A stretch of DNA of 64,000 bases from an uncultured Victivallales bacterium (GCA_934661375.1 CAKUJH010000011.1:24795-88794), one strand, 5' to 3'. Positions 13,875 through 34,081 are shown, counted from the first letter of the stretch. Numbers and translations: made by a program. Notes: generated by a model from the sequence alone, not told the origin.

Positions 13875-14267
13875 ATGAATAAGACAGTGTTAGTGGTGAT
13901 TCTGCTGTTTATTGCCTGCGGAATACTGTGCGCCCGGATGATTTCCTGGACGCCGCGTCCGGATTTCATCCCCGATGAAGATGCAATCGTTGCCGTGGAA
14001 GTGATCAATGACTTTCTTGCAGCAGTGAAGAAACATGATGAAAAAACATTGAAAAAACTCTGGCATTTTGAAAATATGAAAAATGCGAAGCAGGTCATTT
14101 CCGATGTTTCCGGCGGAGACGGTGAATTTCAGCTGCAATGTGCTGTATATACCGGAAAAAAACGGGACCGGATTCTGGTAACCGGTTTGCTGCCCAACGG
14201 CAGATTTCCGGATATTGAAATGGAGAAGAACGGCGAAAGTTTCCGAATTGTCGAACTGCGTTTTTAA
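13875..14267 (+). CDS. Small secreted/lipoprotein-like hypothetical protein (130 aa)
   Basis: Signal peptide MNKTVLVVILLFIACG with a lipobox-like IAC|G. AGGAG RBS upstream. Confidence 0.5.
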   Translation: MNKTVLVVILLFIACGILCARMISWTPRPDFIPDEDAIVAVEVINDFLAAVKKHDEKTLKKLWHFENMKNAKQVISDVSGGDGEFQLQCAVYTGKKRDRILVTGLLPNGRFPDIEMEKNGESFRIVELRF

Positions 14268-14312
14268 TAAAACGGACGGTTCGGCAGAACGCTGAGCAGA
14301 AGGACATTTTTC

Positions 14313-15614
14313 ATGCGGATGCAGAATTCTTACCTTTTGGCATTGAACCGGTTCCGCCGGAAAGCGGCAGCGGCTCGGCTGCCCACAGTTCTGATGAATG
14401 CGTTCGGGGTGATGATCGCTGCTGCTGCGCTGCTGTCTGTGGCTGTCCGGTGCGGATGGTTCGGACGGAATGTTTACTGGTGTCTTCCGCTGGTTCTGGC
14501 TGCCGCAGGAGTGTTTTTTTTCTGCCGCAGCCGGCTTTCCTCGGTTCAGAGCGCCCGGCTTGCGGATCGGTTGTCCAATGCCGACCGTCGGGCGGAGAAT
14601 GCCTGGGAACTGCTGAAACGGAACGCCGAAGGTGAGTTTGCAGAATATGCCATTCAATGCGGTGTTGAAAGTCTGGATCTCGCGACCACCCGGCTGACAG
14701 GGGAAAAAATCCGCTGGCGGAATCTGGTGATTCCGGTTCTGATTCTGCTGCTGGTTCAATTGCCGGTTCCGTCCTTCCTGCATACCCGCGAAACCATATC
14801 CGGAACGGGTGCAGTTCCTTCGGACAGCAGAGCGGATTCACGCAAAGATTCGGAGCTGAATTCTCCGGAGAAACAGAACCCGACAGCAAAATCCGCAGGA
14901 TCGGAAAACAATTCCGGCAGAGGTTCCGCAGAACTTGCCGGGCGTACCGGCAAATCCGGAACTGACGGCGATCTGCAGAATGTCCGGTCCGGCAGCCGTT
15001 CCGCTATTCAGCGGGGACGGGGCGGCAGCGGCGTACCGGCAAATCCGGAATCGGAATCCGTACCGGATGAGGATACAGATTCCCGGCAGTCTGCGGAGAG
15101 CAGCGGCAGGAACACTGCCGGCGGGGCGGCTGGAAACGGTGGTCTTTCCGGAGAGGAAAACGGAACAAATCTCATAAATGTTGCCGCCGGCAGTACCGGA
15201 GACGGCAGATCCCGGAATGAACGGAAACGTCAGAAAAAAAGTGTCCGGAAAAAGATACAGGAATCGCGCGGCGGAGTTCAGCCGCTTCTGCCCGACTGCA
15301 ATCCGCCGGCGGGTCGCGAACTTTCTGAAAAAGAAGGTCATGGGGATCAGCCCGGAGACGGGCGCGGCGGAGATACCGGCGCAAAAAAATCGCGCGGCGC
15401 CGCGGCGTTTCTGCCGGTAACCCCGCAGCCGGATACGGTTGCCGGGCGTCTGGGTGTCGGAGAAGATCTCACTTCTGCCGAATCTGGACGTTCCGAAGGG
15501 GATGGGCAGCTGTCCGGAACACCTGCGGATGTACGCAGAGCCGCAGAGCCGCTGCCCCGTTTTACCGCTTTGCCGGAAACGGTCCGCAGACAAATCCGAA
15601 ACAATATGAAATAA
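14313..15614 (+). CDS. Membrane protein with long Ser/Gly/Arg/Glu-rich disordered region; first gene of the Bat/MoxR-type operon
   Basis: Two or more N-terminal TM segments, another TM near aa 140, then ~280 aa of low-complexity sequence. Tightly linked to downstream genes. Confidence 0.55.
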   Translation: MRMQNSYLLALNRFRRKAAAARLPTVLMNAFGVMIAAAALLSVAVRCGWFGRNVYWCLPLVLAAAGVFFFCRSRLSSVQSARLADRLSNADRRAENAWELLKRNAEGEFAEYAIQCGVESLDLATTRLTGEKIRWRNLVIPVLILLLVQLPVPSFLHTRETISGTGAVPSDSRADSRKDSELNSPEKQNPTAKSAGSENNSGRGSAELAGRTGKSGTDGDLQNVRSGSRSAIQRGRGGSGVPANPESESVPDEDTDSRQSAESSGRNTAGGAAGNGGLSGEENGTNLINVAAGSTGDGRSRNERKRQKKSVRKKIQESRGGVQPLLPDCNPPAGRELSEKEGHGDQPGDGRGGDTGAKKSRGAAAFLPVTPQPDTVAGRLGVGEDLTSAESGRSEGDGQLSGTPADVRRAAEPLPRFTALPETVRRQIRNNMK

Positions 15615-15630
15615 GGTATATTCAACATAA

Positions 15631-16125
15631 TTGGAGACTGCAATGAAGAAAAAAACACTGCTGCTGGCAGGTCTGCTGGCTTCGGGAATGTTTGCCGTTC
15701 TGGCGTCATCTCCGGACAAGAACACCACTGAACAGCTGCGCCGTGAGATCCGGAAAACTTATCCGAAAGCGGAAAAACTGGATTTCAGCCGTGCCGGACG
15801 GGTTTATCTGTCGGACAAGGATGGAAAGCCGCTGGGACATGTCCGCTATACGCATCCGCTGTCCGCCGGAGCCAGAGGTTTCCGCGGTCCGGTTCCGGTG
15901 ATGGTCATGCTGGATGCGTCGGGAAAAGTGCTTACGGTATCTCTGCTGTCCTGCCGCGAAGATTCATCATTCCTGCGGAAACTGTACCGTGCGGAATATT
16001 TTGACAGCTGGAGCGGATTTTCCCGTGCGGATGCGGCGGAACTGGACGTGGACGGTGTAACCGGAGCTACGTTCAGCAGCAAAGCCGCGGCGGAATCTGT
16101 GCGGTCATTGCTGCGGGAAAAATGA
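15631..16125 (+). CDS. Secreted FMN-binding domain protein
   Basis: Signal peptide. A VDGVTGATFSSKA motif matches the FMN_bind (RnfG/NosR-type) covalent FMN attachment region. Confidence 0.65.
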   Translation: METAMKKKTLLLAGLLASGMFAVLASSPDKNTTEQLRREIRKTYPKAEKLDFSRAGRVYLSDKDGKPLGHVRYTHPLSAGARGFRGPVPVMVMLDASGKVLTVSLLSCREDSSFLRKLYRAEYFDSWSGFSRADAAELDVDGVTGATFSSKAAAESVRSLLREK

Positions 16126-17138
16126 AAAGACAGGAGGTCGCAATGAATCAGAATAAAATCCAGATGCCGGAACCGGTGCGGAAATTCCGGGAATCATTTT
16201 TCCGGCTGAAAGATGAATTGTCCCGGGTTTTTGTGGGACATGATGAACTGATCACCGATCTGCTCGGAGCCGTCATGGCGGACGGGCATGTCCTGCTGGA
16301 AGGTGTTCCGGGGCTGGGGAAAACTCTGCTGGCGCGGAGTCTGGCGGGATGTCTTGACCTGAAATTTTCCCGCATACAGTTTACGCCGGATCTGATGCCT
16401 GCCGATATCACCGGCTCGCTTCAACTGCAGGAGGACGCCGCCGGAGTACCGCGTCTGACATTCCGTCCGGGGCCGCTGCTGGCGAACTTTGTGCTGGCGG
16501 ATGAAATCAACCGTGCGACGCCCCGTACGCAATCCGCCCTGCTGGAAGCGATGCAGGAACACCAGATCACAGCGGGCGACCGCACCATGAAAATTCCGGA
16601 ACCGTTCACGGTGATTGCTACGCAGAACCCGATTGAACAGGAAGGAACATATCCGCTGCCGGAAGCGGAACTGGACCGTTTTATCATCAAATTGAATCTG
16701 GGATACCCGCGCGAGGAAGAGTACAGCCGGATTCTGGACCTTACCACCGGAACCGCCGACAGCGGCGTTCATGCGGTCTGCACCGGAGAAGAAGTGCTGG
16801 AAATGCGCCGTACAGTCCGGTCTGTTCTGGCAGAGGAAAATGCGAAAAGCTATGCCGTGCATTGGGTTATGTCGACGCAGCCGGATTCGGAATACTGTCC
16901 GGCGGAATGCCGGGACATGCTGTTGCGCGGAGCCGGTCCGCGGGCGGCGCAGGGCATGATTCTGATGAGTAAAGTGTACGCGCTGCTGGACGGGCGCACC
17001 GCCATCGGTCCAGCGGATCTTGACCGTGCCGCCCTGCCGGTTCTGCGGCATCGTATTGCTCTGCGTTTCGAAGCGCAGATGTCCGGAGAAACGCCGGACT
17101 CCGTGCTGAACCGGCTTCATGAAGGTCTGCGGAAATGA
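16122..17138 (+). CDS. MoxR-family AAA+ ATPase
   Basis: Walker A (GVPGLGKT), Walker B (LADEINRA), the conserved block IATQNPIEQEGTYPLPEAELDRF, and the C-terminal MoxR lid. Confidence 0.9.
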   Translation: MKRQEVAMNQNKIQMPEPVRKFRESFFRLKDELSRVFVGHDELITDLLGAVMADGHVLLEGVPGLGKTLLARSLAGCLDLKFSRIQFTPDLMPADITGSLQLQEDAAGVPRLTFRPGPLLANFVLADEINRATPRTQSALLEAMQEHQITAGDRTMKIPEPFTVIATQNPIEQEGTYPLPEAELDRFIIKLNLGYPREEEYSRILDLTTGTADSGVHAVCTGEEVLEMRRTVRSVLAEENAKSYAVHWVMSTQPDSEYCPAECRDMLLRGAGPRAAQGMILMSKVYALLDGRTAIGPADLDRAALPVLRHRIALRFEAQMSGETPDSVLNRLHEGLRK

Positions 17139-17992
17139 ATCCTGAATCCGAACTGTTTCCTCCGGAATTGCTTCAGGCGGCGTCTTTGTGCCGTCCTGCA
17201 CCCGAAAACGGCGGCATGAATTTTTCCGCCGGGCGGCATCGTTCGCCGTATCGCGGAGACAGTGCGGAATTTCAGGATTACCGGGCGTATGTTCCCGGAG
17301 ATGATTTACGCCGGGTGGACTGGAATATATTCCGGCGTTCCCGCAAACTGCTGTTGCGTCAATATCGGAATTTCCCGCAGAAAAAACACCGGATCATTCT
17401 GGACGGTTCGGCATCGATCCGATTTCGGAACTGCCGCGTGCAGACGGTCTGGCGTCTGGCGGCTCTGCTGGGGGGTACTCTGCTCTGCAGCGGAGACGGG
17501 GTTACGCTGTCCTGTGCGGACCGGATTTATCCGTTTGCGCCGGGACGTCCTGCACTGGCAGGATTCATTTCCGCACTGCTGGAAGAATACCGGCGTCCGG
17601 CTTCCGCCGCACCGTCATTCCGTTTCCCCTCCGGTTGTCACAACTGGCTCATTTCTGATTTTATGGATCCTGCCGGGCTGGCGCATCTGAAAAAAACTTT
17701 CATGACCTGTCGCGGTTTTACACCGGTTCGGATTTTTGAACAAAGCGAACTGCATCCGGAATGGATTGGCGAAATCCGGCTGACCGATGCGGAAAGCCGG
17801 GCGGAAATTACGGTGTCCCCGGAACCTGAACAGCTGAAACGGTATCAGAAACAGCTGAAACGTTTTGAAAAAATGCTGGAAATCCCGGCACGGCGGGCGG
17901 AAAGCAGGGTACTGGCTTTTGATGCGGGGCTTCCGGTTTCAGAACTGATCTGCTGTTTTCAGCAGGAATTTTTCCCGGAGGTGCAGAAATGA
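17135..17992 (+). CDS. DUF58 protein (MoxR partner)
   Basis: YVPGDDLRRVDWNIFRRSRKLLLRQY motif. Gene overlaps and is coupled with the MoxR gene. Confidence 0.8.
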   Translation: MNPESELFPPELLQAASLCRPAPENGGMNFSAGRHRSPYRGDSAEFQDYRAYVPGDDLRRVDWNIFRRSRKLLLRQYRNFPQKKHRIILDGSASIRFRNCRVQTVWRLAALLGGTLLCSGDGVTLSCADRIYPFAPGRPALAGFISALLEEYRRPASAAPSFRFPSGCHNWLISDFMDPAGLAHLKKTFMTCRGFTPVRIFEQSELHPEWIGEIRLTDAESRAEITVSPEPEQLKRYQKQLKRFEKMLEIPARRAESRVLAFDAGLPVSELICCFQQEFFPEVQK

Positions 17993-18918
17993 TTGCGCAG
18001 GGGATTTCATGGCTGACCGCCGGATGCGCCGCGCTGGCGGCATTGGCGGCATTGCTGATTCTGCATTTTCTGCGGACACGTATTCCCGGACAGGTTGTAC
18101 CGTCCATCATGCTCTGGCTGGAAGCGGAGGCATTGCCGGTCCGGCGGATTCTGCTGGAAAAACTGTCGCGGCTGTTGAGTCTGCCGCTGCTGGCGATACT
18201 GGCGGCTCTGGCGGCATTGACGGAGCCGGTGTGGACGTCCGGGGAAAAAGTTTCGCGCATGGTGATCGCTGCCGAACCGGATTGTCTGCCGGAAGCGGAA
18301 CGGCTGTTGCGGCAGCATGATCCTTTGCAGACATCATTGATTCTGGTGTCCGGGGCAGGGGTGGTGCTTCATGATTTCGGAGAACGGAAACAGCCGGTTG
18401 TTCTGCCGGAAAAAATATTTGCGGCGGAACCGGATTCGGCGTCTGCACTGGCGGGGCGTCTGGCGGGATCGGACGGCATGGTCTGCTGGCTGGGCGCATC
18501 CGAACCGCCCTGGCTGCCGGAAAATTCTCTGTACATCCGGAAGGGATTGCCGGAAACGGAAAGTCGGAATGCCGCACTGAAAACCTGTTTCCGGAATGCG
18601 CCGGAAAAATTTATCCGCCAATGGAAAGCCGTAGACGGCGTGAAGACAGTTCCGGAAAAACAGGCGGAACTGATCCTGAACTGTACGCTGTCCGAAAATG
18701 CGTCGTCCGGCGAAATCGAAGCGGAAATGGAACGCTGTTTTGATTTGCTGATGCGTTCCGGTTTGTACGAATCCGGAGGAAAACAGCAGTATCTGTTGTC
18801 CGGAACTGCGGACGCTCCCCGTTCCGGCGCCTGGCGTCTGACCGGCTGGCTGTTCGGATTGGCATTGCTGGCTGCATTGCTGGAACTCGTTCTGTGGCAT
18901 AAACATAAAACCGTGTAG
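17989..18918 (+). CDS. BatA_N-like (aerotolerance-operon N-terminal double-TM domain) membrane protein without vWA domain
   Basis: N-terminal pattern LAALLILHFLRTR...PSIMLWL...LLAILAALAALTEPVW resembles the BatA N-terminal domain. Translationally coupled to neighbours. Confidence 0.5.
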   Translation: MIAQGISWLTAGCAALAALAALLILHFLRTRIPGQVVPSIMLWLEAEALPVRRILLEKLSRLLSLPLLAILAALAALTEPVWTSGEKVSRMVIAAEPDCLPEAERLLRQHDPLQTSLILVSGAGVVLHDFGERKQPVVLPEKIFAAEPDSASALAGRLAGSDGMVCWLGASEPPWLPENSLYIRKGLPETESRNAALKTCFRNAPEKFIRQWKAVDGVKTVPEKQAELILNCTLSENASSGEIEAEMERCFDLLMRSGLYESGGKQQYLLSGTADAPRSGAWRLTGWLFGLALLAALLELVLWHKHKTV

Positions 18919-18931
18919 GAAGGATGACGGT

Positions 18932-21900
18932 ATGCAGCTGTATTTTATGGATTTATGGAGTTTATGGTTTCTGCTTCCCGGCGCGGGATGCTTTTTCCTG
19001 CTGCGGCGACGGGGGGTACGGTTCTGGCAGGGTATGATGATTCTCTGTCTGATTCTGGCAGCGTCCGGACCGGTGCTGCGCTGGACTGGAACGGAGCCGG
19101 AAACTCTGCTGCTGACCGAACGGATACCGGGAGTGAAAACGGATATTCCGGCGGATTTGCAGCGGCGTGCCGGGGTGCGGCAGCGGGATTACACCGGAAG
19201 CACGGCGGCAGCGCTGGCGGATGCCGGAGCCGGATTCCGTTCCGGAAACGGCGGCGAAATTCATCTGTTCAGCACGTTTCATGAAACTTCCGGTTCGGTG
19301 TCCCGTTCCGCCGCGGCGCTGAACCGGCGGAACATCCGGGTTATTGCGCATTCGCAGACGCCCGAAAAAATCCGGCGTCCGGTTCTGCGCGGATTAAGCT
19401 GCAATCCAGCGGCAGGCTGCGGAGAACGGATCCGGCTTGAAGCCGAATTGGCGGTTCCGCATCCGTCCGAAACGGAGTTGAAACTGTGCCGCGCCGACGG
19501 CAGAGTCCTGACTTCCCGGCGCATTGCGTCCCGTCCGGACGGTCTGTCGCGGACAAGTCTGGAGTTTTCGCTGTCAGAACCGGGCGAATATGCCCTGCGG
19601 CTGGAGTTGGACGGTGCTGCCGCCGCGGAGATTCATCTTGCCGTATCTGCACCGTACCGTGCCGTTCTGATTTCTGCACAGCCGGAACTGGAACTGCCGG
19701 CATTGCGGGAGCTGTTCCGCGGAGCGGAAATCGAACTCCGGGAACCGTCCCGGAAATTTTCCTCCGCGGCATTGCTGGTGATCGGTGAAGGCGGCGTACG
19801 TACGTTGAAAGCGTCTGAACTGAAAGAACTTGCCGAAACGGTAAAAAACGGCGCCGGACTGCTGTACTTTGCCGGGACGGACATTCCGTTTGCGGAAGAA
19901 AAACTGCCGTCCGCGTTTCGGGAACTGCTGCCCGTCCGTTATGCCGGAAAAAATCTGAACCGGATGCCGACGACCGCGCTGGCAATCATCATTGATACAT
20001 CGGGCAGCATGAGCGGCACCCGGCTGGCATTGGCGCGGGAGACTGCGCGTCTGGCGCTGGACAAGCTCCGTGACTGCGACATGGCGGGGATCGTGGAATT
20101 TCACGGCCGCCGCCGCTGGGCGGCGCCGCTCCAGAGTGCCGCCAATCATCTGGAACTGCATCGGGCTCTCAACCGTCTGAACGCCGGCGGCGGGACGGTG
20201 ATTCTGCCAGCCTTGCAGGAGGCATTTTACGCTTTGCGCAATGCCGACGCGCGCCTGAAACATGTTCTCATCATTACCGACGGCGGCGTGGAGCAAGGCG
20301 ATTTTGAAGGTCTGCTGCGGCGCATGGCGGAGAACGATATTACCGTGTCAACCGTCATGACCGGGAGCGGACAAAGCCCGTTTCTGAGCCGTCTTGCCTG
20401 GTGGGGCGGCGGGCGTTTCTACACGGCATCCAGCCGTTTTGCTCTGCCGGAACTGGCTTTCCGGCAATCGGGCAGAGAGTCGCTTCCGCCGTTCCGTACC
20501 GGCCCGTTTTCTCCGGAAGTCCACAGCGGCTGGCAGCTGTTTTCCGGACTGTCATCTGTACCGTCTGTTCCCGGCGTGCTGGAAAATACACTGGCGTCCG
20601 GAGCGGAGGAAGCGATCCGCGCGGGACAGCAGCCGCTGATTGCTCTGCGCCGTGCGGGAGCGGGAATGGTCTGCGCGGTGAATACCGGTCTGTCCGGGGA
20701 TGTCATGCAGAACTTTTACCGTCAGCCGGCGGTTGCCGGAATGTTTTCCGCATTGGGGCGTTCTCTGCCGGATCCTGTTCGGATGCAGCCGTTTGCGGTT
20801 CGGGATTATTCCGTTCTGCAGGATATTCATTTCCGGTTTGAACGGGCTGGACAGATTCCATATCTTTATGCGGAATTGTCTGCACCGTCCGGAAAAACGG
20901 AGCGTTACCGTCTTGAACGGGCGGCGGATCAGACATTTCATTTCCGGCGTTACGGATTGCCGGAAGGAACATATCACCTGAAAATTTCAGAAACTGCGGA
21001 TATGCGCAATCCGCTCCAGTTTCCGTTTGATTCCTTCGCTGCGCCGGCGTCCGGCTGGACTGCGGAAGATCACCGGACTGCGGAAGAAATCACGCGGCGT
21101 TCGCTTCTTTTGCCGGAACCGGGAGCAGCAATACGGCAGTTTTATCTGCGTCCGGTGTTCGGCGGACTTTTCATCCTGCTGATGCTGGTGCAGCTTCTGC
21201 TGCGCCGTCTGCCGTCGCGTCTGGCTCTGACTGCCGGACTGCTTTGCGTGAGCTGTCTGGTGTTCGGCGGCGAGTATGAAACTCAGTTGAAGAACGGATT
21301 GCTGGGCCATCAGCCGGAAACGGCGTTTCGTCTGGCGGCGGAGAAGGCAAGAACTGCTTCCGATCTCCGTTTTGCTCTGCTGCTGGAATTGGAAACAGCC
21401 CGGAATCATGGACATCAGGAGGAACTGCTCCGCCGTTGGTCCGCCCTGTCTGCCATGGAACCGGAACGTCTGGAACTGCTGGTCAACGCCTGTGAAGATG
21501 CGGGACAGCCGGAACGTGCTCTGGCTGTGCTGAAACAGCATGGCGGCGGTCTGGATGGACGTTTTGCACCGACGCTGATCCGTCTGGCGGAGAAATGCGG
21601 CAGGAGTGATCTGTTGCGCACGGAGATTCAGCAGCAGCTGAAACGGAATCCGCGTTCAATGTTTCTGCTGAATGCGGCGTTCCGTCTGGAACTGCTGGCA
21701 GGACGTCGTGCGGCGGCGGAGGAATTGCTGGATCAGCGGCTGAAAACGGAGAATGACCCCGCTGTTCTGCGTCTGCTGGCAGAATCAGCGGAGAAAGCCG
21801 CGCTTTATTCCTGTGCCGAGCGTATTCTGCGGAAAGAGGAACAGGTTTCCGCGGAAGGAGTCTGGCCCGCCCGGTTCCGCCGCATGGATCTGGCTGTTCA

Positions 21901-24900
21901 CCGCGGTGATCCTGCCGGAGCCGTAAAGCTGCTGCGGAGTTTTGCCGCAGAAAAAAATCTGTCCCGTGGAATTCTGCTGAACCTTGCCGACCGCTGTGAA
22001 CAATACGGCGATTCCGTGACCGCACTGGAGCTGTACCGCCGGGCTGGCAGTGAAGACGCCCGGATTCGTGCCGCTATGCTGCTGGAAGGTCTGGGACGGA
22101 ATCCGGAAGCCGCAAAACTCTGGAATGAGGTGTTCCGCACTTCGGAAAATGAAATGCGCGCGCGTCAGGCGATGGAACGTCTGCTGGATTTGTCTGCCGC
22201 CGCCGGGAAACTGCCGGAAACCGCTGCCGCACTGGAACAGAAATTGAAGCAGAAGCCGTCATTGCGTCTTAAAACTTTTTATGCGCACGTGCTGTTCCGA
22301 GCCAATCGGCTGGATGAGCTGTTCCATTATCTGGATCTTCAGGAAAAAAACGGTGAAACCGGACTTGCCGGGCTGAAACTTTCTTTCCTGCTGTCGGCAC
22401 GCCGGTACAAAGAAGCGTCAGCTCTGCTGGAACAGAAAAAAACGGCGGATCCGGAAAAACGCGCGGAAATACTGCGTCATCAGGTTCTGATTGCCGTTGA
22501 AGCCGGTGACAAGACTTTGGCACACCGGGCAGCGGATGAGCTGCTGCGCATTGCGCCCCGCCGTGCCGACGCGCTGGAATTTGCCGCCGGGGTATATTCT
22601 CTGCTGAATGAGCCGGCGAAAGCGGTGGAAATGTATGATGAGTGCCTGAAAGAAAATCCGTCGCGGATTGAATTGTATCTGCTTCGCGCCAAAGCGCAGA
22701 AGGCTGCCGGAGCGGGCAGGCGGGCCCAGGCGTTTTTCGTGGAGAAACTGCGGGAACCGGTTTCCGCGGATTTCTTCGGAATTGCGGCGGACGGTCTGCT
22801 GGATCTGAATGTTCCGAAAGAAGTTCTGCGGCAAGTGCTGGCGGAAACCATGAAACGGCTCAACGCCGATCCGGAACTGCTGTTCTATTACCGTTTGGCG
22901 GAAGACCTGGCGGAGGAACTGGGCGACCGGGCGGTGTGGCGTCATCTTCAGCTGCTTCAGCTGGCTGCGGCACCGGAACGGCGCACTCTTCTGCTGCGCG
23001 GTTTATATGAGGATGCTGTGGTCTGCGGACGCCGGAAAGATTCGTTCCGTCTGGCGCGCCTGTTGTCCGGATGGAATGAAATCTATCCGCCGGAATTGTA
23101 CCGGTCATTGTCGGGTGAACTCACGGAAAACGGATTTTTCGCCGCGGCGGAACGTTGTGTCCGTCAGGCGGATGCAGCGGAAAACAGCAGCCGGCATCTG
23201 TTTGCCTTGACGCAGGTCTGTCTGGATGCCGGACGACCGGCGGATGCGGCACGGATTTGCCGGGAACTGCTGAGTCTGTCTCCGGACTCTCCGGAGTATC
23301 TGATCCGGTATGCCGAGGTTCTGGAAATATCCGGAGAATACCGCCGTGCCGGTGAACAGAATCTGCGTGCGTTGTCGCTGCTGGCGTCCCGTATGGTGCT
23401 GGATCAGGGGCAGGGCAAAGGGAGCAGCAGTGCCGTGTTTGAACGCCAGATCCGCCCGGTGATCTGCGCCTTTGCTAATCAGTTTGTTCTGTGTCCGGGG
23501 GTATTTGATGCAGAGCTTGCCGTTCTGGAAAAGACTGCCGGAGCCGCCGCCCGCCGCCGGGTGTGGAATCCTCTGCGGAAACGCATGAATGCACTGACCG
23601 GTTTGCCGGTTCCGTCTGCGGTCCGGAGGAATGCCGTGCCGGGCAGCCGTCCGGTTCCCGCTGATGTGCTGGCATACCGTCTGGCAGTTCTGCCGGAAAC
23701 GGAAGCCGTAAAGGAAGTGGAACAGACCTTCCGGAAATTATCCGCCGGACAGCGTTCTCCGTATTGGGAGCGGCTGGTTGGTTCGCTGTGTGCCGAGCCG
23801 CCGGCGCGCGTGTCGGCAGTACTGGAACGGGAATTGACCCGGCTGACTTTCCGGAATACCGGTATCCGCTGGCAGTTTTCCGCTTACGGGCTGGCATTGA
23901 AACGCAAGTATGCGGAACTGTTTCTGAAAAAGTTTCCGGAGTCTCTCCATGCCTTGTCCCTTGCCGCGCAAATCCGTTATCTGACCGGCGATCCTGCGGG
24001 AGCGCGTCTGCTGGCAGGGGAAGTGTATGAACGTTTTGCCGGACTTGTCGAAGTGAAGTTTCCGGAATACCGCGCCGGTTTGGAGCTAAACCGGATTTTT
24101 GCCGCAGCGGACAGCGAAGCGGAAAACGCCGGGAAACATGCCCGGAGCGAGTTGCAGGCTTCCGTGGAGTCGGACCGGAAACTGCTGGGCGATACTCCGG
24201 CGCGGACTTTGACCGCCGTGCTTCTGCTGAAAGGCGAAGGGAAATATGACGCTGCACTGGATGAGCTGTTCCGTCTCTGGAAAAACGGGGAACGCGGACT
24301 GGTGGTTTTCCGATTGTCGGAGGAACTGACCGTCCGCACTGGCCGTTACCGTGAATGGCTGGAACTGCTTTCCTCCTATGAAACCAAAGATGTTTCGGTT
24401 CGAGTGCTTGCCGCCCGGCGGCAGGTGCAGCTGTTCCGGGATGTGGGGGAATACCAGCGGGCGCGGCAGAGTCTGCCGATGCTGGCGGTTCCGCTTCAGA
24501 AAAGGGAACGGCTGCTGACGGAACGTTTTATGCTTTCACCGGAAAGATTTGCCGCAGGACTGCGTAGCTTCCTGATCGGCCAATGCCGTACCGGACAGTT
24601 CGTCGGTTTTTATGCGGACAGTTTCGGGACGGATGGTCTGACCGGTTACAGACTGCGCGGCGGACGGCGTGCGAATTTGCTGCCGGAACTGGCGGTGCGC
24701 GACCGTGCTTTGAATGATACTCTGGGCAGTCTGCTGCGCGGAACCCCTGTTGCGGAACGCGGATTCGCTGTACTGTTTGAAGCCTGGCGGAATACTCTGC
24801 CGGGAAACGGGAACCCGCATTCCGCCGGCACGGAAAAAACGGTTCCTGCTCTGCTGGCAATGCGGACCGTTTCCGGCGGATCTTATCATGCCGGAGAGAT

Positions 24901-25681
24901 TGCCATGGCGGAAAAACTGATCCGCAATTCCGCCGTTCCGGTGGAAAACGCTGTCATCTTTCTGGATATACTGCCGCGAGCCGGGCAGTCCTCTGCCGCG
25001 GCAGGTCTGGCGGAACGGGTGCTTCAGTCGCCGCAGCCGTCGAAACAGCGCGAACTCCTGGAGTCTCTGCTGAAACGGATGGAACCGCAGAAACGGCGTG
25101 CTGTCCTGCTGCGTCTGGCTTCGCTGATTCCGGAAAATGACTGTGCTCTGCGGGTTTTCTGGCTCGGCATGACACGCACTTATGAACCGTCCCTGCTGCC
25201 GGAAATGCGCGGTCTGCTGTGCCGTCCGGCTGTTTTTCCTGCGGATACGGAATTGTATCTGCTGTATGGACAAGGTTCTGCACAGGAACGGATTCTACGT
25301 TTTCTGACGGTTGCGGAACGTTATCCGGACTGGCAGATTCTGTTCCTGATTCCGGATGAAACGGAAAAACAGTCTCTGGCGGATGCCGCGGAAAAAGCTC
25401 TGGAAACTGCTTTGCGCCGGGGGCTGCTGCCCGAAGATGAACTGGTTCGGCATTATGTCCTGCTGTCTGTTGCAGACCCCGTCCGGAAAGCATACTGGCA
25501 GACCCGTGCCGCCTTGCATGACCGTCAGCCGGGGGAAAGTTCCCTGTGGCGTCTGGACAGTCTGGAAAATCCGGCGGAACGTGCCGCTTTGCTGAAAAAA
25601 TTATCTTCTGCCGGACGGCTTCCGCCGCAGCGCAGAAATACAAACCAAAACCCTGTTACAGGAAAGGAATCCCTGCAATGA
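18932..25681 (+). CDS. Giant (2249 aa) BatA/BatB-like protein: N-terminal double-TM domain, vWA domain with MIDAS, internal TM segment, ~1400-aa TPR/alpha-solenoid array
   Basis: vWA: IIIDTSGSMSG...TVILPALQEAFYAL...HVLIITDGG. TM near aa 745-785. Long Leu/Ala/Arg-rich helical repeats follow. A single uninterrupted ORF. Confidence 0.8.
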   Translation: MQLYFMDLWSLWFLLPGAGCFFLLRRRGVRFWQGMMILCLILAASGPVLRWTGTEPETLLLTERIPGVKTDIPADLQRRAGVRQRDYTGSTAAALADAGAGFRSGNGGEIHLFSTFHETSGSVSRSAAALNRRNIRVIAHSQTPEKIRRPVLRGLSCNPAAGCGERIRLEAELAVPHPSETELKLCRADGRVLTSRRIASRPDGLSRTSLEFSLSEPGEYALRLELDGAAAAEIHLAVSAPYRAVLISAQPELELPALRELFRGAEIELREPSRKFSSAALLVIGEGGVRTLKASELKELAETVKNGAGLLYFAGTDIPFAEEKLPSAFRELLPVRYAGKNLNRMPTTALAIIIDTSGSMSGTRLALARETARLALDKLRDCDMAGIVEFHGRRRWAAPLQSAANHLELHRALNRLNAGGGTVILPALQEAFYALRNADARLKHVLIITDGGVEQGDFEGLLRRMAENDITVSTVMTGSGQSPFLSRLAWWGGGRFYTASSRFALPELAFRQSGRESLPPFRTGPFSPEVHSGWQLFSGLSSVPSVPGVLENTLASGAEEAIRAGQQPLIALRRAGAGMVCAVNTGLSGDVMQNFYRQPAVAGMFSALGRSLPDPVRMQPFAVRDYSVLQDIHFRFERAGQIPYLYAELSAPSGKTERYRLERAADQTFHFRRYGLPEGTYHLKISETADMRNPLQFPFDSFAAPASGWTAEDHRTAEEITRRSLLLPEPGAAIRQFYLRPVFGGLFILLMLVQLLLRRLPSRLALTAGLLCVSCLVFGGEYETQLKNGLLGHQPETAFRLAAEKARTASDLRFALLLELETARNHGHQEELLRRWSALSAMEPERLELLVNACEDAGQPERALAVLKQHGGGLDGRFAPTLIRLAEKCGRSDLLRTEIQQQLKRNPRSMFLLNAAFRLELLAGRRAAAEELLDQRLKTENDPAVLRLLAESAEKAALYSCAERILRKEEQVSAEGVWPARFRRMDLAVHRGDPAGAVKLLRSFAAEKNLSRGILLNLADRCEQYGDSVTALELYRRAGSEDARIRAAMLLEGLGRNPEAAKLWNEVFRTSENEMRARQAMERLLDLSAAAGKLPETAAALEQKLKQKPSLRLKTFYAHVLFRANRLDELFHYLDLQEKNGETGLAGLKLSFLLSARRYKEASALLEQKKTADPEKRAEILRHQVLIAVEAGDKTLAHRAADELLRIAPRRADALEFAAGVYSLLNEPAKAVEMYDECLKENPSRIELYLLRAKAQKAAGAGRRAQAFFVEKLREPVSADFFGIAADGLLDLNVPKEVLRQVLAETMKRLNADPELLFYYRLAEDLAEELGDRAVWRHLQLLQLAAAPERRTLLLRGLYEDAVVCGRRKDSFRLARLLSGWNEIYPPELYRSLSGELTENGFFAAAERCVRQADAAENSSRHLFALTQVCLDAGRPADAARICRELLSLSPDSPEYLIRYAEVLEISGEYRRAGEQNLRALSLLASRMVLDQGQGKGSSSAVFERQIRPVICAFANQFVLCPGVFDAELAVLEKTAGAAARRRVWNPLRKRMNALTGLPVPSAVRRNAVPGSRPVPADVLAYRLAVLPETEAVKEVEQTFRKLSAGQRSPYWERLVGSLCAEPPARVSAVLERELTRLTFRNTGIRWQFSAYGLALKRKYAELFLKKFPESLHALSLAAQIRYLTGDPAGARLLAGEVYERFAGLVEVKFPEYRAGLELNRIFAAADSEAENAGKHARSELQASVESDRKLLGDTPARTLTAVLLLKGEGKYDAALDELFRLWKNGERGLVVFRLSEELTVRTGRYREWLELLSSYETKDVSVRVLAARRQVQLFRDVGEYQRARQSLPMLAVPLQKRERLLTERFMLSPERFAAGLRSFLIGQCRTGQFVGFYADSFGTDGLTGYRLRGGRRANLLPELAVRDRALNDTLGSLLRGTPVAERGFAVLFEAWRNTLPGNGNPHSAGTEKTVPALLAMRTVSGGSYHAGEIAMAEKLIRNSAVPVENAVIFLDILPRAGQSSAAAGLAERVLQSPQPSKQRELLESLLKRMEPQKRRAVLLRLASLIPENDCALRVFWLGMTRTYEPSLLPEMRGLLCRPAVFPADTELYLLYGQGSAQERILRFLTVAERYPDWQILFLIPDETEKQSLADAAEKALETALRRGLLPEDELVRHYVLLSVADPVRKAYWQTRAALHDRQPGESSLWRLDSLENPAERAALLKKLSSAGRLPPQRRNTNQNPVTGKESLQ

Positions 25682-26502
25682 GAATCCCGTTGTTGACCGC
25701 CGCCGTACTGCTCGCCGCCGTAACGGCATTCGCCCATGGACCCGCCCAGCCGCCGCTGAAATCTCCGGCGGCAGCCGCTCTCCGCAAAGGAGATCTGGAA
25801 ACGGCTCTGACTCTGTTTGAATCCGAAATCAAAGCCTCTCCGGATGAGCCCCGGCTGAAACAGCATTATGCAGAACTGAAGACTCATCTGCGGCGTGAAA
25901 AAATGTTTGCCGCGGAACAGAATCCGGAAATGAAAACCCGGATCGGGCGTCAGCTCCGGCGTTTCTATTACAAGTGCGGAATGTTCGGCAAAGCAGAACA
26001 GACCGACCGCGCCGTTTATGCGGCGGATGCCTCCGAAGCCAATGCCGTCAGCTTGGGCGTTACTCTGCTGAATACCGGTAAAAATCAGGAAGCGGCGGAA
26101 CTGTTCCGCAAGGTGAATCTGGACAAAGCCAAGCCCGGCGTGGTGCTTTGTGCCGCTCTCGCAGAAGCGCGTACCGGCAGCAAGGAAAATTCCGTAAAAC
26201 TGTTGAGCCGTTTCTCCGTGGAAAAAATGGATGCCAACAGCCTTCAATTGTATGCCCGCTGTGCCGCGCTCAACGGCGATGCCGCTGGAACTGCCGCCGC
26301 AGTCCGCCGTATTCTGGAACAGACCAAAGCCAAACAGCATCCGTCTCTGAAAAAACATCTGTTCAGCACTCCGGATTTCCGGAATGTGGCGGAACAGGAA
26401 AGTTTCAAGGCTGCATTGAATACTGAATCCAAAGTGAAGGATAATTGCGATACTTGTCCTAAACGCGGAACCGCGGAATGCGAGGATAATCAGAAACACT
26501 GA
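25678..26502 (+). CDS. Secreted TPR-like protein with C-terminal Cys cluster (BatE-like position)
   Basis: Start overlaps the stop of the giant ORF (ATGA). Signal peptide MRIPLLTAAVLLAAVTAFA. Helical repeats. C-terminal CDTCPKRGTAEC. Confidence 0.65.
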   Translation: MRIPLLTAAVLLAAVTAFAHGPAQPPLKSPAAAALRKGDLETALTLFESEIKASPDEPRLKQHYAELKTHLRREKMFAAEQNPEMKTRIGRQLRRFYYKCGMFGKAEQTDRAVYAADASEANAVSLGVTLLNTGKNQEAAELFRKVNLDKAKPGVVLCAALAEARTGSKENSVKLLSRFSVEKMDANSLQLYARCAALNGDAAGTAAAVRRILEQTKAKQHPSLKKHLFSTPDFRNVAEQESFKAALNTESKVKDNCDTCPKRGTAECEDNQKH

Positions 26503-26523: not shown

Positions 26524-26568
26524 TCTGGACTTTATGTCTTTCGGGTCATATCGTCCAGATTTTTTTTA
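26524..26568. terminator. Bidirectional rho-independent terminator between convergent genes
   Basis: TCTGGAC...GTCCAGA stem followed by a T8 run. Coordinates approximate (+/-2). Confidence 0.55.
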
Positions 26569-27468
26569 TTGCGGCAAAGAGCCGAATTTATCCTGAACCG
26601 TATCCAGAAAAATTTCAGCGGCTTTGCTGAATACCTGATATTTTTTCCAGACAATGTTCAGTCCGGATTCCAGCCGCGGAGTCAGCGGACGGAAACACAG
26701 ATTGTGATGTTCTCCCGCTATGAGCATGTGGTCAAGGGAAAGAGCGCAGCCGATTCCCGCTTCCACCATCAGCGCGGCATTGTAGAACAGGTTGTAAGTG
26801 GCAACCACATTCAGTTTTTCAAAGCGGCTGCCGAACCATGCGGCGAACGGGTTGCGCACCGGGGACTGTTCTTCATTCATTCTGGAACAGATCAGCGGCT
26901 GATGAAGCAGATCGTCCGGATTCAATTCTTTTTTCTTCGCCAGCGGATGGTCTTTCCGCATGACCACTCCCCAGATATTTTTAGCCGGAAGCGTAACATA
27001 ATCATACTTGGAAATATCGACTGGCTGGATGAGGACGCCGAAATCCAGAATGCCTTTGTCCAGCCGTTCCATGACATCGGCGGCATTTCCGCTGAAAATA
27101 TGGTATTTGATTTCCGGGTAAATTCCCCGCAGTTCCCGAATGATTTCAGCGATCAGCATCATGGCGTTGGTTTCGCCGCCGCCGATGTAGACTTTGCCGC
27201 TGATGAAATTGCCCATTGCGCTGAAATCGGCTTCGGTACGTTTGACCATTTCCACGATTTCTTCGGCGCGTTTGCGCAGAAACATGCCTTCAGGGGTGAG
27301 CGTGATGTTCCGGTTGCTCCGGATAAACAGCTGCTGTCCCAGTTCATCTTCCAGTTCCTGCAGCTGCCGGGAAAGAGTCGGCTGGGTAACGTGCAGAAAT
27401 TCTGCCGCCCGGACAATTGTTCCTTCTCGTGCGACTGCGAGAAAATAACGCAATACTCTGAGTTCCAT
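26566..27468 (-). CDS. LysR family transcriptional regulator
   Basis: N-terminal HTH MELRVLRYFLAVAREGTIVRAAEFLHVTQPTLSRQLQELEDELG, plus LysR substrate-binding domain. Confidence 0.9.
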   Translation of the reverse strand: MELRVLRYFLAVAREGTIVRAAEFLHVTQPTLSRQLQELEDELGQQLFIRSNRNITLTPEGMFLRKRAEEIVEMVKRTEADFSAMGNFISGKVYIGGGETNAMMLIAEIIRELRGIYPEIKYHIFSGNAADVMERLDKGILDFGVLIQPVDISKYDYVTLPAKNIWGVVMRKDHPLAKKKELNPDDLLHQPLICSRMNEEQSPVRNPFAAWFGSRFEKLNVVATYNLFYNAALMVEAGIGCALSLDHMLIAGEHHNLCFRPLTPRLESGLNIVWKKYQVFSKAAEIFLDTVQDKFGSLPQ

Positions 27469-27482
27469 GAAGATACTCCGTT

Positions 27483-27959
27483 TTATTCCTGCGGGGTGAT
27501 TCCCGGTTCCGTCTGGATTTTCAAAGCAGTTTTCGGATTGTAGCGGTCTGTGTCGCCGGACGCCAGAAGTTTCTTGTAATAATCCTTTTTATATTTCAGA
27601 ATGTTCATCTGTTTCCGGAGATTTTTCATCTGTTCACGCAGAATTTTTTCCTGCTGGAAAATCAGTTCAGCTCGTTCGGGAATGGTGGAATCGCCGCGCT
27701 GACACATGTCGATATAACTTTTCACTCCTTCGATGGAGAGTCCGGTGGAACGCAGACAATGAATGAGTTTCAGCCAGCTGACATTGTAATCAGAAAACAG
27801 CCGGGCGTTTCCTTCCGAGCGGTCGACATCAGGAATCAGTCCGATGTTGTCGTAATAACGGACGGTATACGGAGAAAGTTCCATCATTTCGGCGACCTGC
27901 CGGACGGAATATTTCGGAGTGCGGTCGTGCAGAAAACTGAATGATTTGTTTTTGGACAT
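27483..27959 (-). CDS. MerR family transcriptional regulator
   Basis: YSVRQVAEMMELSPYTVRYYDNIGLIP HTH followed by a coiled-coil dimerisation helix. Confidence 0.85.
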   Translation of the reverse strand: MSKNKSFSFLHDRTPKYSVRQVAEMMELSPYTVRYYDNIGLIPDVDRSEGNARLFSDYNVSWLKLIHCLRSTGLSIEGVKSYIDMCQRGDSTIPERAELIFQQEKILREQMKNLRKQMNILKYKKDYYKKLLASGDTDRYNPKTALKIQTEPGITPQE

Positions 27960-28063
27960 GACGATTTTCTTTCATGGTTTGAAAACTTAGAGCAACTTTA
28001 ATATATCGGCGGCATTTTCATTTGTCAAGCATATCGGGAGAAAAATTTTTTCTGAAAATGATT

Positions 28064-28100
28064 TGACTTAGAGCTGCTGTAAGGTTTATGGTATCAGCAT
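28064..28100 (+). promoter_or_regulatory. Candidate MerR-type promoter/operator (TTGACT, ~18-19 bp spacer with CTTA...TAAG inverted repeat, TATGGT) driving the divergent redox operon
   Basis: Sequence-level motif search by eye; coordinates approximate. Confidence 0.35.
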
Positions 28101-28194
28101 GGAGGTGCGGAATGGAACGGGGAGTCTATGCTTGAAAGGCATATGCTGGTATAGAAAAGAAATATTTGCTATTCGTTGAAATCCGAATTATAGT

Positions 28195-28473
28195 ATGGCT
28201 GTGATCGGAAGAAACGGAGGTGCAGATTTGGAGGAAACTTCATTGAATCAGACGGAGTTTCTGTTGAAACGCAATCTGAAGGATGCGGGATTCGGACCGA
28301 AACAGACGGAACGGTTCCTGCAGCTCCGGATGGAAGGCAGAAACCGGGAACTGGAGTTGATGCTGGCGGAACTGCGGGTGTCGCTCCTGAAAAAAGTGCA
28401 TGAAAACCAGAAACGGATCGATTGTCTGGACTATTTGAAAAATAAAATCAAACAGAAGGAAACGGAATCATGA
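28195..28473 (+). CDS. Small hypothetical helical protein (92 aa), first gene of MerR-divergent operon
   Basis: ORF with its stop overlapping the flavodoxin start (ATGA). No family recognised. Confidence 0.4.
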   Translation: MAVIGRNGGADLEETSLNQTEFLLKRNLKDAGFGPKQTERFLQLRMEGRNRELELMLAELRVSLLKKVHENQKRIDCLDYLKNKIKQKETES

Positions 28474-29054
28474 AAAACAAAATGTCAGCTCTTGCCATGG
28501 CCGCCGCAATGTTCACTGTCGGCGGATGCGCCCAGGAAACCGTCGCCGCGGAAAAAGCATCTGCGGAACCGGGAAAAATTCTGATCGCGTATTACTCGTA
28601 CAGCGGCAACACGAAATTCGCGGCGGAAGTGATTCAGAAAGCCACTGGGGGAACGCTGTTCGAAATTGTGCCGGTCAAAGCGTATTCCGCCAATTACAAT
28701 GAATGTGTGGCGCAGGCGAAAAAAGAAATCCGCGCCGGATTCAAACCGGAACTCAAAGCCAATGCGGCAGATTTTGCCAAATATGAGGTGATTTTCGTCG
28801 GTACGCCGAACTGGTGGAGCACCATGGCGCCGCCGGTGCTGACTTTCCTGGCATCGAACAATTTTACCGGAAAGACAGTCATACCGTTTGCAACTCATGG
28901 CGGCGGGGGAATGGCGGACTGCGAAAGCGACATGCACAAGGCTCTGCCGAATGCGAAGTTCGCGAAAGGCGGCGCATTTTCCGGCAGCCGTGTGCGCAGT
29001 TCCGAAGCCGCAATCCGTGATTGGGTGAACAGCGTCGTGGAAATCAAAAAATGA
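28470..29054 (+). CDS. Flavodoxin-family lipoprotein
   Basis: Lipoprotein signal (MAAAMFTVGGC). ILIAYYSYSGNTKFAAEV and FVGTPNWW...ATHGGGG match the flavodoxin fold. Confidence 0.8.
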   Translation: MKNKMSALAMAAAMFTVGGCAQETVAAEKASAEPGKILIAYYSYSGNTKFAAEVIQKATGGTLFEIVPVKAYSANYNECVAQAKKEIRAGFKPELKANAADFAKYEVIFVGTPNWWSTMAPPVLTFLASNNFTGKTVIPFATHGGGGMADCESDMHKALPNAKFAKGGAFSGSRVRSSEAAIRDWVNSVVEIKK

Positions 29055-29062
29055 GGTGAGAC

Positions 29063-30115: not shown

Positions 30116-30119
30116 AATC

Positions 30120-30779
30120 ATGAACCGTCGGGAATTCATCAAATCTTCACTGATCGTTTCCGTCGTGGCGGGAACCGCTGCTGTCGGCGGTTCTCTCCTG
30201 AACGCATTTGCCGCTGAACCTGTGCCGCAGAAAAGGAGAAATGGAAAAATGAAAATTCTGGTGCTTACGGGCAGTCCCCGTAAAAACGGCAATTCCAGTA
30301 CCCTCGCTTCGGAGTTCATCCGCGGCGCGGAGGAAGCCGGACATGAAGTCGTGCGTTTCGACGCTGCGTTCAAAAAAGTGCATCCGTGCATTGCCTGCAA
30401 CCAGTGCGGCATGAACGGTCCGTGTGTATTCAAAGATGACTTTGAATTCGTCCGCAAACACATTGTCGATGCGGACTGCGTGGTGTTTGCGACTCCGATG
30501 TACTATTTTGGAATCTCCGCCCAGCTCAAAGCGGTGATAGACCGTTTTTACGCAATCAACGGCGAGATACACCGTCCGAAGAAAGCCGTGCTGCTGATGA
30601 CGTATGCCAATACCGCGGTTTCGGAAGCGGACCCGATCCGTTCGCATTATGATGTTCTGCTGAAATATCTCGGCTGGAGCGATGCCGGACGGGTGATTGC
30701 GCGGGGTGTCTGGCCGGTCGGCGCAGTCAACCGAACAAAATATCCGGCGCAGGCGTACCAGCTCGGAAAAAATATCTGA
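30120..30779 (+). CDS. Tat-signal flavodoxin-like fold NAD(P)H-dependent FMN reductase / iron-sulfur flavoprotein
   Basis: Twin-arginine motif (MNRREFIKSSLIV...AFA). MKILVLTGSPRKNGNSS and CIACNQCGMNGPC. Confidence 0.75.
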   Translation: MNRREFIKSSLIVSVVAGTAAVGGSLLNAFAAEPVPQKRRNGKMKILVLTGSPRKNGNSSTLASEFIRGAEEAGHEVVRFDAAFKKVHPCIACNQCGMNGPCVFKDDFEFVRKHIVDADCVVFATPMYYFGISAQLKAVIDRFYAINGEIHRPKKAVLLMTYANTAVSEADPIRSHYDVLLKYLGWSDAGRVIARGVWPVGAVNRTKYPAQAYQLGKNI

Positions 30780-30811
30780 AAACATTTTCCGGAGATTTTT
30801 TTCAAGTCGGC

Positions 30812-34075: not shown

Positions 34076-34081
34076 GCGAAG

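Follow-up and report, generated by a model that had tools for sequence, protein, structure and literature searches.

What is encoded by an operon that joins a MoxR-type ATPase and a DUF58 protein to a single polypeptide of 2249 amino acids (aa), and that also carries a gene for an exported flavin mononucleotide (FMN)-binding protein? Operons of the Bat/MoxR type with von Willebrand factor A (VWA) domain proteins are widespread and have been linked to aerotolerance, stress tolerance, virulence and envelope integrity. The operon considered here lies in a stretch of 64,000 nucleotides (nt) from an uncultured Victivallales bacterium (GCA_934661375.1 CAKUJH010000011.1:24795-88794), hereafter the window, in which all coordinates are counted from the first letter. 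We find that the locus is the Lentisphaeria version of a Bat-like MoxR operon distributed throughout the Planctomycetes-Verrucomicrobia-Chlamydiae (PVC) phyla; the identity and architecture assigned to this PVC-wide operon are likely to be right, and its function is proposed with less confidence.

Eight co-oriented, tightly packed genes, g0 to g7, occupy positions 13875-26502 of the plus strand (Table 1). A preliminary description of this DNA had named a seven-gene Bat/MoxR-type operon. Its open reading frames (ORFs) were all recovered at the same coordinates and on the plus strand, and the type of operon is borne out by Pfam matches to AAA_3 (the MoxR family), DUF58, VWA and tetratricopeptide repeat (TPR) families; the seven genes stand as a unit, to which an eighth small gene, g0, probably belongs as well. 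The latter sits 45 nt upstream of g1, and a gene is called at its position in sister contigs. The 4-nt gene overlaps reported earlier at 17135, 17989 and 25678 are real, and a fourth, at 16122, depends on which start codon is chosen for moxR. The ATG at 16143, which has AGGAGG upstream and is the start chosen by gene callers on sister contigs, is most likely the correct one, leaving a 17-nt spacer after the FMN_bind gene in place of an overlap; for the FMN_bind gene itself the start is ATG 15643, which has GGAG 6 nt before it and gives a product of 160 aa. Beyond g0 on the upstream side is an AraC-type regulator gene, and a convergent LysR gene follows g7. Promoter-like sites occurred at shuffled expectation in a promoter consensus scan, a terminator consensus scan found no terminator-like site marking the end of the operon, and the window gave no match in Rfam or tRNA scans, nor in particular any FMN riboswitch.

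The same arrangement recurs widely. A protein search with g6 returned 211 homologs; 120 were listed, and most of these have VWA and TPR regions and a length of 2145-3316 aa. The sources name them just "VWA domain-containing protein" or "tetratricopeptide repeat protein". In a genome scan limited to one genome per species, relatives were found in 244 species genomes, from which 80 loci were kept and their ORFs searched with the window proteins. These loci belong to Lentisphaerota, Planctomycetota (Phycisphaerae, Pirellulales and others, including the isolate Rohdeia mirabilis) and Verrucomicrobiota, and the order g1-MoxR-DUF58-g5-g6 is conserved in all three phyla. The g6 protein is usually fused, and is so at all 16 Lentisphaeria species loci, such that the single-ORF architecture, which the preliminary description had highlighted, is the usual form of a family present in 244 species genomes of three PVC phyla. 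The g7 gene follows g6 at every Lentisphaeria locus that reaches past the end of g6 and at some Phycisphaerae loci, standing immediately 3' of g6 in 25 loci.

The 2249-codon frame of g6 is unbroken far beyond chance and encodes a genuine single polypeptide, as the preliminary description had taken its 6.7-kb ORF to do. The cluster formed at 90% identity has 47 members from ENA, Logan and NCBI assemblies, on contigs of up to 265 kb, and 13 of the 15 members listed are 2249 aa long; the identical protein is present on five contigs, of which the two shown come from different samples. An ortholog at another locus (L087), 84% identical and 2247 aa in length, is flanked by the same genes in the same order, the one for FMN_bind among them. 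The alignment of the two contains one 2-codon indel, and the ratio of nonsynonymous to synonymous substitution rates (dN/dS, Nei-Gojobori) is 0.19 overall and 0.08-0.31 across 250-codon blocks. Because it stays low in every block, g6 is under purifying selection along its whole length.

Two AlphaFold2 (AF2) models, of residues 1-800 (predicted local distance difference test score, pLDDT, 86) and 785-1984 (pLDDT 89.3; predicted template modelling score, pTM, 0.79), together with Pfam, Foldseek comparison against the PDB and a scan for transmembrane (TM) helices, define the anatomy of this protein. Residues 1-800 are modelled as TM1/TM2, followed by two alpha/beta domains, the first of them small, with a beta-sandwich between them, and then by the VWA domain, further beta domains and TM3/TM4. 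The order previously sketched for the megaprotein (two TM helices, a VWA domain with metal ion-dependent adhesion site (MIDAS), a TM region and a long helical repeat) is thus upheld, and the motifs VDGVTGATFSS (in g2), DTSGSMSG and TDGG are all present. The further proposal of a BatA_N domain held only in part: the double TM is there, BatA (PF07584) gave no match to g6 at E<=0.1 and is absent from the precomputed Pfam lists of its homologs, and the relation to BatA is one of remote homology. The g5 family profile matches residues 27-335 of g6 by hhalign (98.2% probability, E=3.2e-14), with similarity from TM2 onward, so g6 begins with a BatA-like paralogous module, in which a beta-sandwich lies between two alpha/beta domains, the first of these VWA-like but degenerate and lacking a MIDAS.

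The main VWA domain is detected by Pfam at residues 350-507 (E=7.5e-12, 46 bits), and its MIDAS residues D355, S357, S359, T422 and D450 are invariant across 40 homologs. Its structural matches in Foldseek are alpha2delta, ITIH1, CLCA1, BatB of Bacteroides thetaiotaomicron (3ibs) and an aerotolerance protein of Bacteroides fragilis (4jdu). In most Planctomycetota homologs (P0106-P0191) a DxSxS MIDAS motif is kept near residue 71 in addition to the one near residue 420, and their g5 orthologs (loci within L018-L082) retain a VWA domain. Neither the window protein nor its nearest Lentisphaeria-type homologs have the motif near residue 71; the Lentisphaeria versions have lost both extra MIDAS sites, that of the BatA-like module and that of g5, and kept the one in the main VWA domain. 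A GATase1_like/DUF1355 region as a full domain after the VWA was considered and rejected, the match to PF07090 in two Planctomycetota homologs (P0113 and P0191) being partial and covering profile positions 171-242 of 247.

Behind TM4, Pfam detects repeats in only a small part of the g6 tail, matching TPR_14 (E=6.5e-11, 42 bits; cut-off 23.5) and TPR_19. The AF2 model of residues 785-1984 shows about 65 paired helices in an uninterrupted array, for which IFT139/TTC21B, SKI3, Ctr9, OGT-TPR and Naa15 are the best structural matches. Conserved columns occur throughout the tail, which marks it as a homologous domain and not a drifting repeat. As modelled, then, the tail is a TPR-type solenoid of about 1465 aa.

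The orientation of g6 in the membrane can be read from homologs in which it is divided. At 18 Planctomycetota and Verrucomicrobiota loci, g6 is represented by two genes split exactly after TM3: the first ORF ends about 10 residues past TM3 and an invariant RR, and the second, encoding the TPR protein, opens with a classical signal peptide. At two Verrucomicrobiota loci (L022 and L027), about 2.3 kb of other sequence lies between the two halves. TM4 of fused g6 is the counterpart of this signal peptide. The two arginines, R758 and R759 in the window protein, are invariant, and a second hydrophobic segment follows the TM3 loop in 96 of 112 full-length fused homologs, with a mean loop net charge of +2.9; the loop of the N-terminal hairpin, RRRGVR, is also positive. 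Given the positive-inside rule and the homology to a signal peptide, we infer that the BatA-like module, the MIDAS VWA domain and the whole solenoid of about 1465 aa are periplasmic. The BatA-like protein BB0173 of Borrelia has a periplasmic VWA orientation that is experimentally supported (PMC5700661). MoxR (g3) and DUF58 (g4), in which the TM scan found neither hydrophobic segment nor signal, are predicted to be cytoplasmic; g0, g1, g2, g5, g6 and g7 all possess TM helices or signal peptides.

Among the remaining core components, g3 matches AAA_3 (PF07726; E=1.1e-59, 200 bits, cut-off 27) and AAA_lid_2 (6.3e-15, 55 bits) and has the Walker A sequence GVPGLGKT, which places it among the MoxR AAA+ ATPases. 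The DUF58 protein (E=2.2e-16, 60 bits, cut-off 23.4) is encoded by a gene that overlaps moxR by 4 nt and has a DGSAS motif at residue 90, as befits a MoxR-VWA operon; we read g4 as the cytoplasmic partner of MoxR. The g5 protein has positional orthologs in more than 60 loci. The window protein gave no match to BatA (PF07584) at E<=0.1 and displays the two-TM layout in the TM scan; among 44 aligned orthologs, 27 match Pfam BatA (best E=2.7e-7) and 20 match VWA_2. Its earlier designation as a BatA_N-only protein therefore stands by way of the orthologs and not of the window protein itself. Lentisphaeria g5 proteins, of about 300 aa, do not contain the VWA domain of the approximately 550-aa Planctomycetota orthologs.

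The first core gene, g1, has an ortholog in 60 loci including the window, where its end mostly overlaps MoxR by 4 nt. The protein has no Pfam family, a single one of 44 orthologs showing a weak DUF4175 match. A conserved segment of about 65 aa separates TM2 and TM3, and after the low-complexity linker comes a near-invariant C-terminal motif (residues ~320-385), RGGxQP..D..P..R[DE]L...GRGG...KKSRG.A...V.P.PD.V.G, which is common to Lentisphaerota, Planctomycetota and Verrucomicrobiota; alignment invariants are D85, R351, G353, K358, K359, R361, P373 and G383. With P373 invariant and D374 near-invariant, one may speculate that this motif is a docking peptide, for example a MIDAS ligand. At the other end of the operon, g7 has a signal-like N-terminus and TPR-like helices with weak Pfam TPR matches, and C257, C260 and P261 (CxxCP) are invariant or nearly so in 18 orthologs, those of Phycisphaerae included. 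The disordered membrane protein (g1, with three TM helices and a low-complexity linker), the MoxR and DUF58 genes and the secreted TPR protein with a Cys cluster that closes the operon were all correctly recognised in the preliminary description. Orthologs of g0 lie upstream of the operon at 12 Lentisphaeria loci including the window; no Pfam family was found for g0 or its orthologs, their alignment is without conserved Cys or His, and it is a Lentisphaeria-specific accessory. At several loci, the window not among them, a prepilin-type gene (N-methyl motif, DUF1559-like) stands between g0 and g1; the g0/prepilin region spans 4649-5864 in L008, 1928-3086 in L009 and 3556-5121 in L012.

The FMN-binding protein is of a different standing. 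That g2 encodes a secreted FMN_bind protein within the operon, as earlier claimed, is sound: Pfam FMN_bind matches with E=1.2e-10 (42 bits, cut-off 22), VDGVTGATFSS is present, and the TM scan finds an N-terminal hydrophobic export signal. The protein aligns to RnfG (7zc6_G) across the TGAT flavinylation site, and across 8 homologs, several with lipoprotein-type signals, the motif D-x-V-[TS]-G-A-T is invariant, its D, V, A and T being identical throughout. On the strength of the RnfG alignment, the invariant motif and the signals, g2 is a plausible substrate of ApbE on the periplasmic side, and its flavinylation is predicted. No ApbE gene was found in Pfam gene maps covering approximately 4-56 kb of the window, and the operon contains no recognisable membrane electron-input module (Rnf/Nqr, PepSY, DsbD-like or cytochrome).

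Hidden Markov model (HMM) searches of the fetched genome loci with g2 identified seven loci besides the window, all from Lentisphaeria, with no borderline matches elsewhere; among Lentisphaeria loci informative by virtue of sufficient flanking sequence, g2 is near the operon (within 3 kb) in 7 of 13. Its position varies. It lies between g1 and moxR at one locus (L004), as in the window, upstream of g0 at four (L008, L009, L012 and L014) and just after g7 at two (L003 and L016). A gap of about 0.5 kb between g1 and moxR occurs only in the window and L004 among genome loci and is filled by the FMN_bind gene; since g1 normally overlaps moxR by 4 nt, the gene is an insertion into a pre-existing junction. 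The copy 3' of g7 in L016 (10921-11562) has an additional C-terminal TM helix, a Cys-rich tail (CCGCHGGG) and a weak FeoB_associated match.

Outside these loci, a word-indexed homolog search with g2 returned three clusters only, and a metagenome scan with the g2 alignment yielded 80 loci, of which only the same-organism locus has the operon within 10 kb. The closest other relatives, at 31-40% identity, are singleton lipoprotein genes. Three of these (L093, L100 and L103) stand in what was judged by eye to be a Bacteroidales-like housekeeping context (uridine kinase, rsmI, thymidine kinase), and in L093 and L103 a secreted protein of about 222 aa, rich in R, P and H, adjoins the g2 relative. 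On a further contig (L119), Lentisphaeria-like in carrying a prepilin-type gene, g2 is found beside a weak g0-like match with no operon nearby. The FMN_bind gene is a facultative, Lentisphaeria-restricted accessory, whose linkage to the operon recurs in the clade and whose family is not specific to the system. In the window it must, on prediction, be co-transcribed with the operon, and coupling of g2 to the complex is possible and not required by the family. Because the gene is facultative (7 of 13 loci) and its relatives elsewhere are singletons, the redox-linked function that the preliminary description took it to hint at is a hypothesis and does not follow from conserved linkage.

We propose that the operon builds an inner-membrane-anchored complex facing the periplasm. 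By analogy with MoxR/VWA pairs and Bat/cmd operons, MoxR and DUF58 would form a cytoplasmic, ATP-driven assembly or remodelling module, acting on a membrane complex of g1, g5 and g6 through the short cytoplasmic parts of these proteins. In the periplasm, envelope proteins could dock in a metal-dependent manner on a platform made up of the MIDAS VWA domains and the solenoid of more than 1400 residues, with g7 as a soluble periplasmic partner and the flavinylatable g2 in the same compartment, and the outcome, again by analogy, may be support of envelope integrity and stress tolerance. Reducing agents partly rescue bat mutants of B. fragilis, for which an export of reducing power has been proposed (PMC3557215); the title of a paper on Rhizobium RL3499-RL3502, as cited in PMC5700661, speaks of cell-morphology and envelope-integrity defects. 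Several points weigh against the proposal. Placing MoxR and DUF58 in the cytoplasm and the VWA domains in the periplasm creates a compartment problem, and the topology itself is deduced from sequence rules and split homologs. Neither BatD (PF13584) nor the SH3 domain of BatE found a match in g1-g7 at E<=0.1, and our literature search found no paper describing any member of the PVC family. Leptospira bat mutants are unchanged in morphology, growth rate and survival of oxidative stress (PMC3557215), so an envelope or stress role of Bat-like systems is not general.

Other explanations can be set against this one. That the 6.7-kb ORF is an artefact, fusing separate genes via misassembly or a missed stop or frameshift, would agree with the separate halves of g6 at 18 Planctomycetota and Verrucomicrobiota loci; but the same 2249-aa protein recurs across the 47-member cluster from three sources on contigs as long as 265 kb, the 2247-aa ortholog keeps dN/dS below 0.31 in every block, the junction included, fusion is seen at each of the 16 Lentisphaeria species loci and at most of the others, and the TM3-RR-TM4 junction is conserved among homologs. 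We reject this explanation, which is refuted as far as can be judged from the cluster, the ortholog and dN/dS, and leave it hardly any probability. The compartment problem would disappear if the topology were inverted, with the VWA and TPR parts in the cytoplasm, directly engaged by MoxR as in RavA-ViaA and CbbQ-CbbO, and the short loops in the periplasm; MoxR ATPases usually work with a VWA partner of the same compartment. This arrangement would have to accommodate a split TPR protein that starts with a signal peptide, a VWA protein that ends at TM3 and RR, two hairpin loops that are both strongly positive and the periplasmic VWA domain of BB0173 (PMC5700661). The DUF58 protein already provides a cytoplasmic DxSxS protein, and we consider the inverted topology very unlikely.

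Functionally, the strongest competitor is a dedicated periplasmic redox machine to which g2 and the CxxCP protein g7 are integral and which delivers or uses reducing equivalents in a strict anaerobe; Tang et al. in 1999 reportedly proposed a periplasmic reducing-power function for Bat proteins. The presence of g2 inside the operon, with intact invariant flavinylation motif and export signal, is consistent with such a role, as are the invariance of the g7 CxxCP motif in Phycisphaerae too and the partial rescue of B. fragilis bat mutants by reducing agents (PMC3557215), and the occurrence of g2 within 3 kb at 7 of 13 loci in three different positions suggests a linkage kept through rearrangements. 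Yet g2 occurs at no Planctomycetota or Verrucomicrobiota locus and is missing at 6 of the 13 informative Lentisphaeria loci, the operon accompanies only the same-organism one of 80 metagenome g2 loci, the closest other relatives are singleton lipoprotein genes in Bacteroidales housekeeping-like contexts, and both an electron-input module and, in the mapped part of the window, ApbE are lacking; the main text of the flavinylation survey of Meheust et al. 2021 mentions neither MoxR, VWA nor Lentisphaerae (PMC8238504). We judge the redox machine unlikely. Somewhat more doubtful still is the specific form in which a PVC periplasmic MoxR-driven megascaffold, a solenoid of 1400-2400 residues on a VWA/MIDAS base, would have recruited g2 and the CxxCP protein to act as a redox-maintenance device in gut Lentisphaeria; if true, genetic evidence would for the first time back the idea, put forward in 1999, that Bat complexes supply the periplasm with reducing power. 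A MoxR-vWA conflict or defence system of the ternary (beta-propeller) type is suggested by a match of g3 to Pfam bpMoxR (PF20030; 1.5e-12), but AAA_3 scores 200 bits against 47 for bpMoxR, no beta-propeller or effector gene is present, PADLOC returned no system, and the vertical conservation of the core operon across three phyla counts against such a reading, which is scarcely tenable.

Table 1. Genes of the operon, two sequence motifs and the domains of g6. Positions refer to the window.
Feature	Position	Strand	Description
g0	13875..14267	+	130 aa; single N-terminal TM or signal anchor and small alpha+beta domain
g1	14313..15614	+	433 aa; core component, 3 TM helices, low-complexity linker, conserved C-terminal motif
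g2	15643..16125	+	160 aa; exported FMN_bind protein, RnfG/NqrC-like
g2 flavinylation motif DGVTGAT	16051-16071	+	
g3	16143..17138	+	MoxR-family AAA+ ATPase, 331 aa; 338 aa from alternative start 16122
g4	17135..17992	+	DUF58 protein, 285 aa, without TM helix; DGSAS (DxSxS) motif
g5	17989..18918	+	BatA-like membrane protein, 309 aa; TM pair, reduced middle domain, C-terminal TM
g6	18932..25681	+	2249-aa megaprotein; intact ORF, purifying selection
g6 residues 8-45	18953..19066	+	TM1, RRRGVR loop, TM2 (N-terminal hairpin); AF2 helices 8-23 and 27-45; hydropathy
g6 residues 47-335	19070..19936	+	BatA-like module, g5-family paralog; hhalign, AF2
g6 residues 348-507	19973..20452	+	VWA with complete MIDAS; DTSGS 19994-20008, TDGG 20276-20287
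g6 residues 521-701	20492..21034	+	beta-rich domains and short helical segment; AF2
g6 residues 740-776	21149..21259	+	TM3, invariant RR loop, TM4; AF2 helices 740-759 and 762-776
g6 residues 785-2249	21284..25678	+	modelled TPR-type alpha-solenoid, ~1465 aa; AF2, Foldseek, Pfam
g7	25678..26502	+	274 aa; secreted TPR protein; CDTCP (C-terminal Cys motif) at 26446-26460

Neighbouring regions of the window have characters of their own. Directly downstream, a cluster at 26566-30800, separate from the operon, opens with opposite-strand genes for LysR and MerR regulators, continues with Flavodoxin_4, CMD/cupin and FMN_red genes, and has the appearance of a redox or stress response; on the contig with the 84%-identical g6 ortholog, extra ADH and FMN_red genes are present in the region downstream of the operon. 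From approximately 32750 to 41900, a multi-Fer4 protein is followed by LarB (AIRC), LarC (Ni_insertion), a LarE-like protein (ATP_bind_3), TatA and TatC and then, after TatC, by an aldo-keto reductase with Fer4 domains and a CbiM/CbiQ/ABC transporter, in what looks like a cluster for nickel-pincer cofactor biosynthesis and metal uptake. A 1262-aa Laminin_G_3/GHL10/Malectin protein (47180-50968) and an 877-aa GH123 protein (7248-9881, minus strand) fit a gut glycan-degrading lifestyle.

Taken as an inner-membrane-anchored complex that would face the periplasm, the operon is of interest on several counts. It is a stereotyped Bat-like operon common to three PVC phyla, whose main product is among the largest proteins of these genomes; split and fused forms of this product together inform the topology, placing the VWA modules and TPR solenoid, by prediction, in the periplasm; and one gut lineage has added an exported FMN_bind protein. 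If the redox link is true, the old hypothesis of "periplasmic reducing power" becomes directly testable, and if it is false, the operon keeps its value as a marker for an envelope complex conserved in PVC bacteria. A literature search aimed at the PVC operon found no description of it, and the terms MoxR, DUF58, BatA, VWA and operon do not occur in Kamneva et al. 2012.

Among characterized systems, the BatI aerotolerance operon of B. fragilis has the same succession of MoxR, DUF58, double-TM BatA-type and VWA (MIDAS) membrane proteins, and TPR proteins, and is likewise proposed to yield a periplasm-facing complex; as noted above, the g6 VWA domain matches the structures 3ibs and 4jdu. In contrast to BatI, the window operon has no BatD and no SH3-bearing BatE, and by these two absences falls outside classical BatA-E membership; it has in addition the conserved 3-TM protein g1, combines VWA and TPR regions in one 2249-aa protein with a solenoid of about 1465 aa, has lost the VWA domain from g5 (in Lentisphaeria) and belongs to a family confined to PVC phyla. 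The bat fusions of Leptospira, Borrelia and Francisella are not known to carry more than a few TPRs. The preliminary description had set the fusion against the separate BatA-E proteins of Bacteroides; BatB-BatC of Leptospira biflexa is already a VWA membrane protein fused to TPRs within a MoxR/DUF58 operon (PMC3557215; PMC5700661), and bat coding-region fusions are also reported in Borrelia (bb0170-0176) and Francisella (PMC3557215). The principle of fusion is therefore not new. In comparison with the L. biflexa protein, the tail in the window is modelled as a solenoid of about 65 helices, and the junction keeps the TM3-RR-TM4 hairpin derived from a signal peptide. RL3499-RL3502 of Rhizobium leguminosarum, which we take to be a MoxR-DUF58-BatA-type gene set, belongs to another phylum, is likened here by description and would have a role of the kind proposed above; to our knowledge it includes no giant TPR protein.

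The accessory protein g2 shares the FMN_bind signature, export signal and D-x-V-[TS]-G-A-T motif with RnfG/NqrC-type and ApbE-flavinylated proteins (PMC8238504), and differs from RnfG/NqrC in being a stand-alone protein of 160 aa that has neither Rnf/Nqr subunits nor any other partner for electron transfer in its vicinity. The long TPR superhelices that act as docking platforms in eukaryotes (IFT139/TTC21B, SKI3/TTC37, Ctr9 and OGT) resemble the g6 solenoid at the level of fold only, with 10-19% identity, and the g6 solenoid is bacterial, membrane-tethered and probably periplasmic. Beside these systems, the novelty lies in how large the solenoid is, in a conserved TM3-RR-TM4 junction that stems from a signal peptide, in g1 as an additional core protein, in the confinement to PVC phyla and, for Lentisphaeria, in the accessories g0, g2 and g7.

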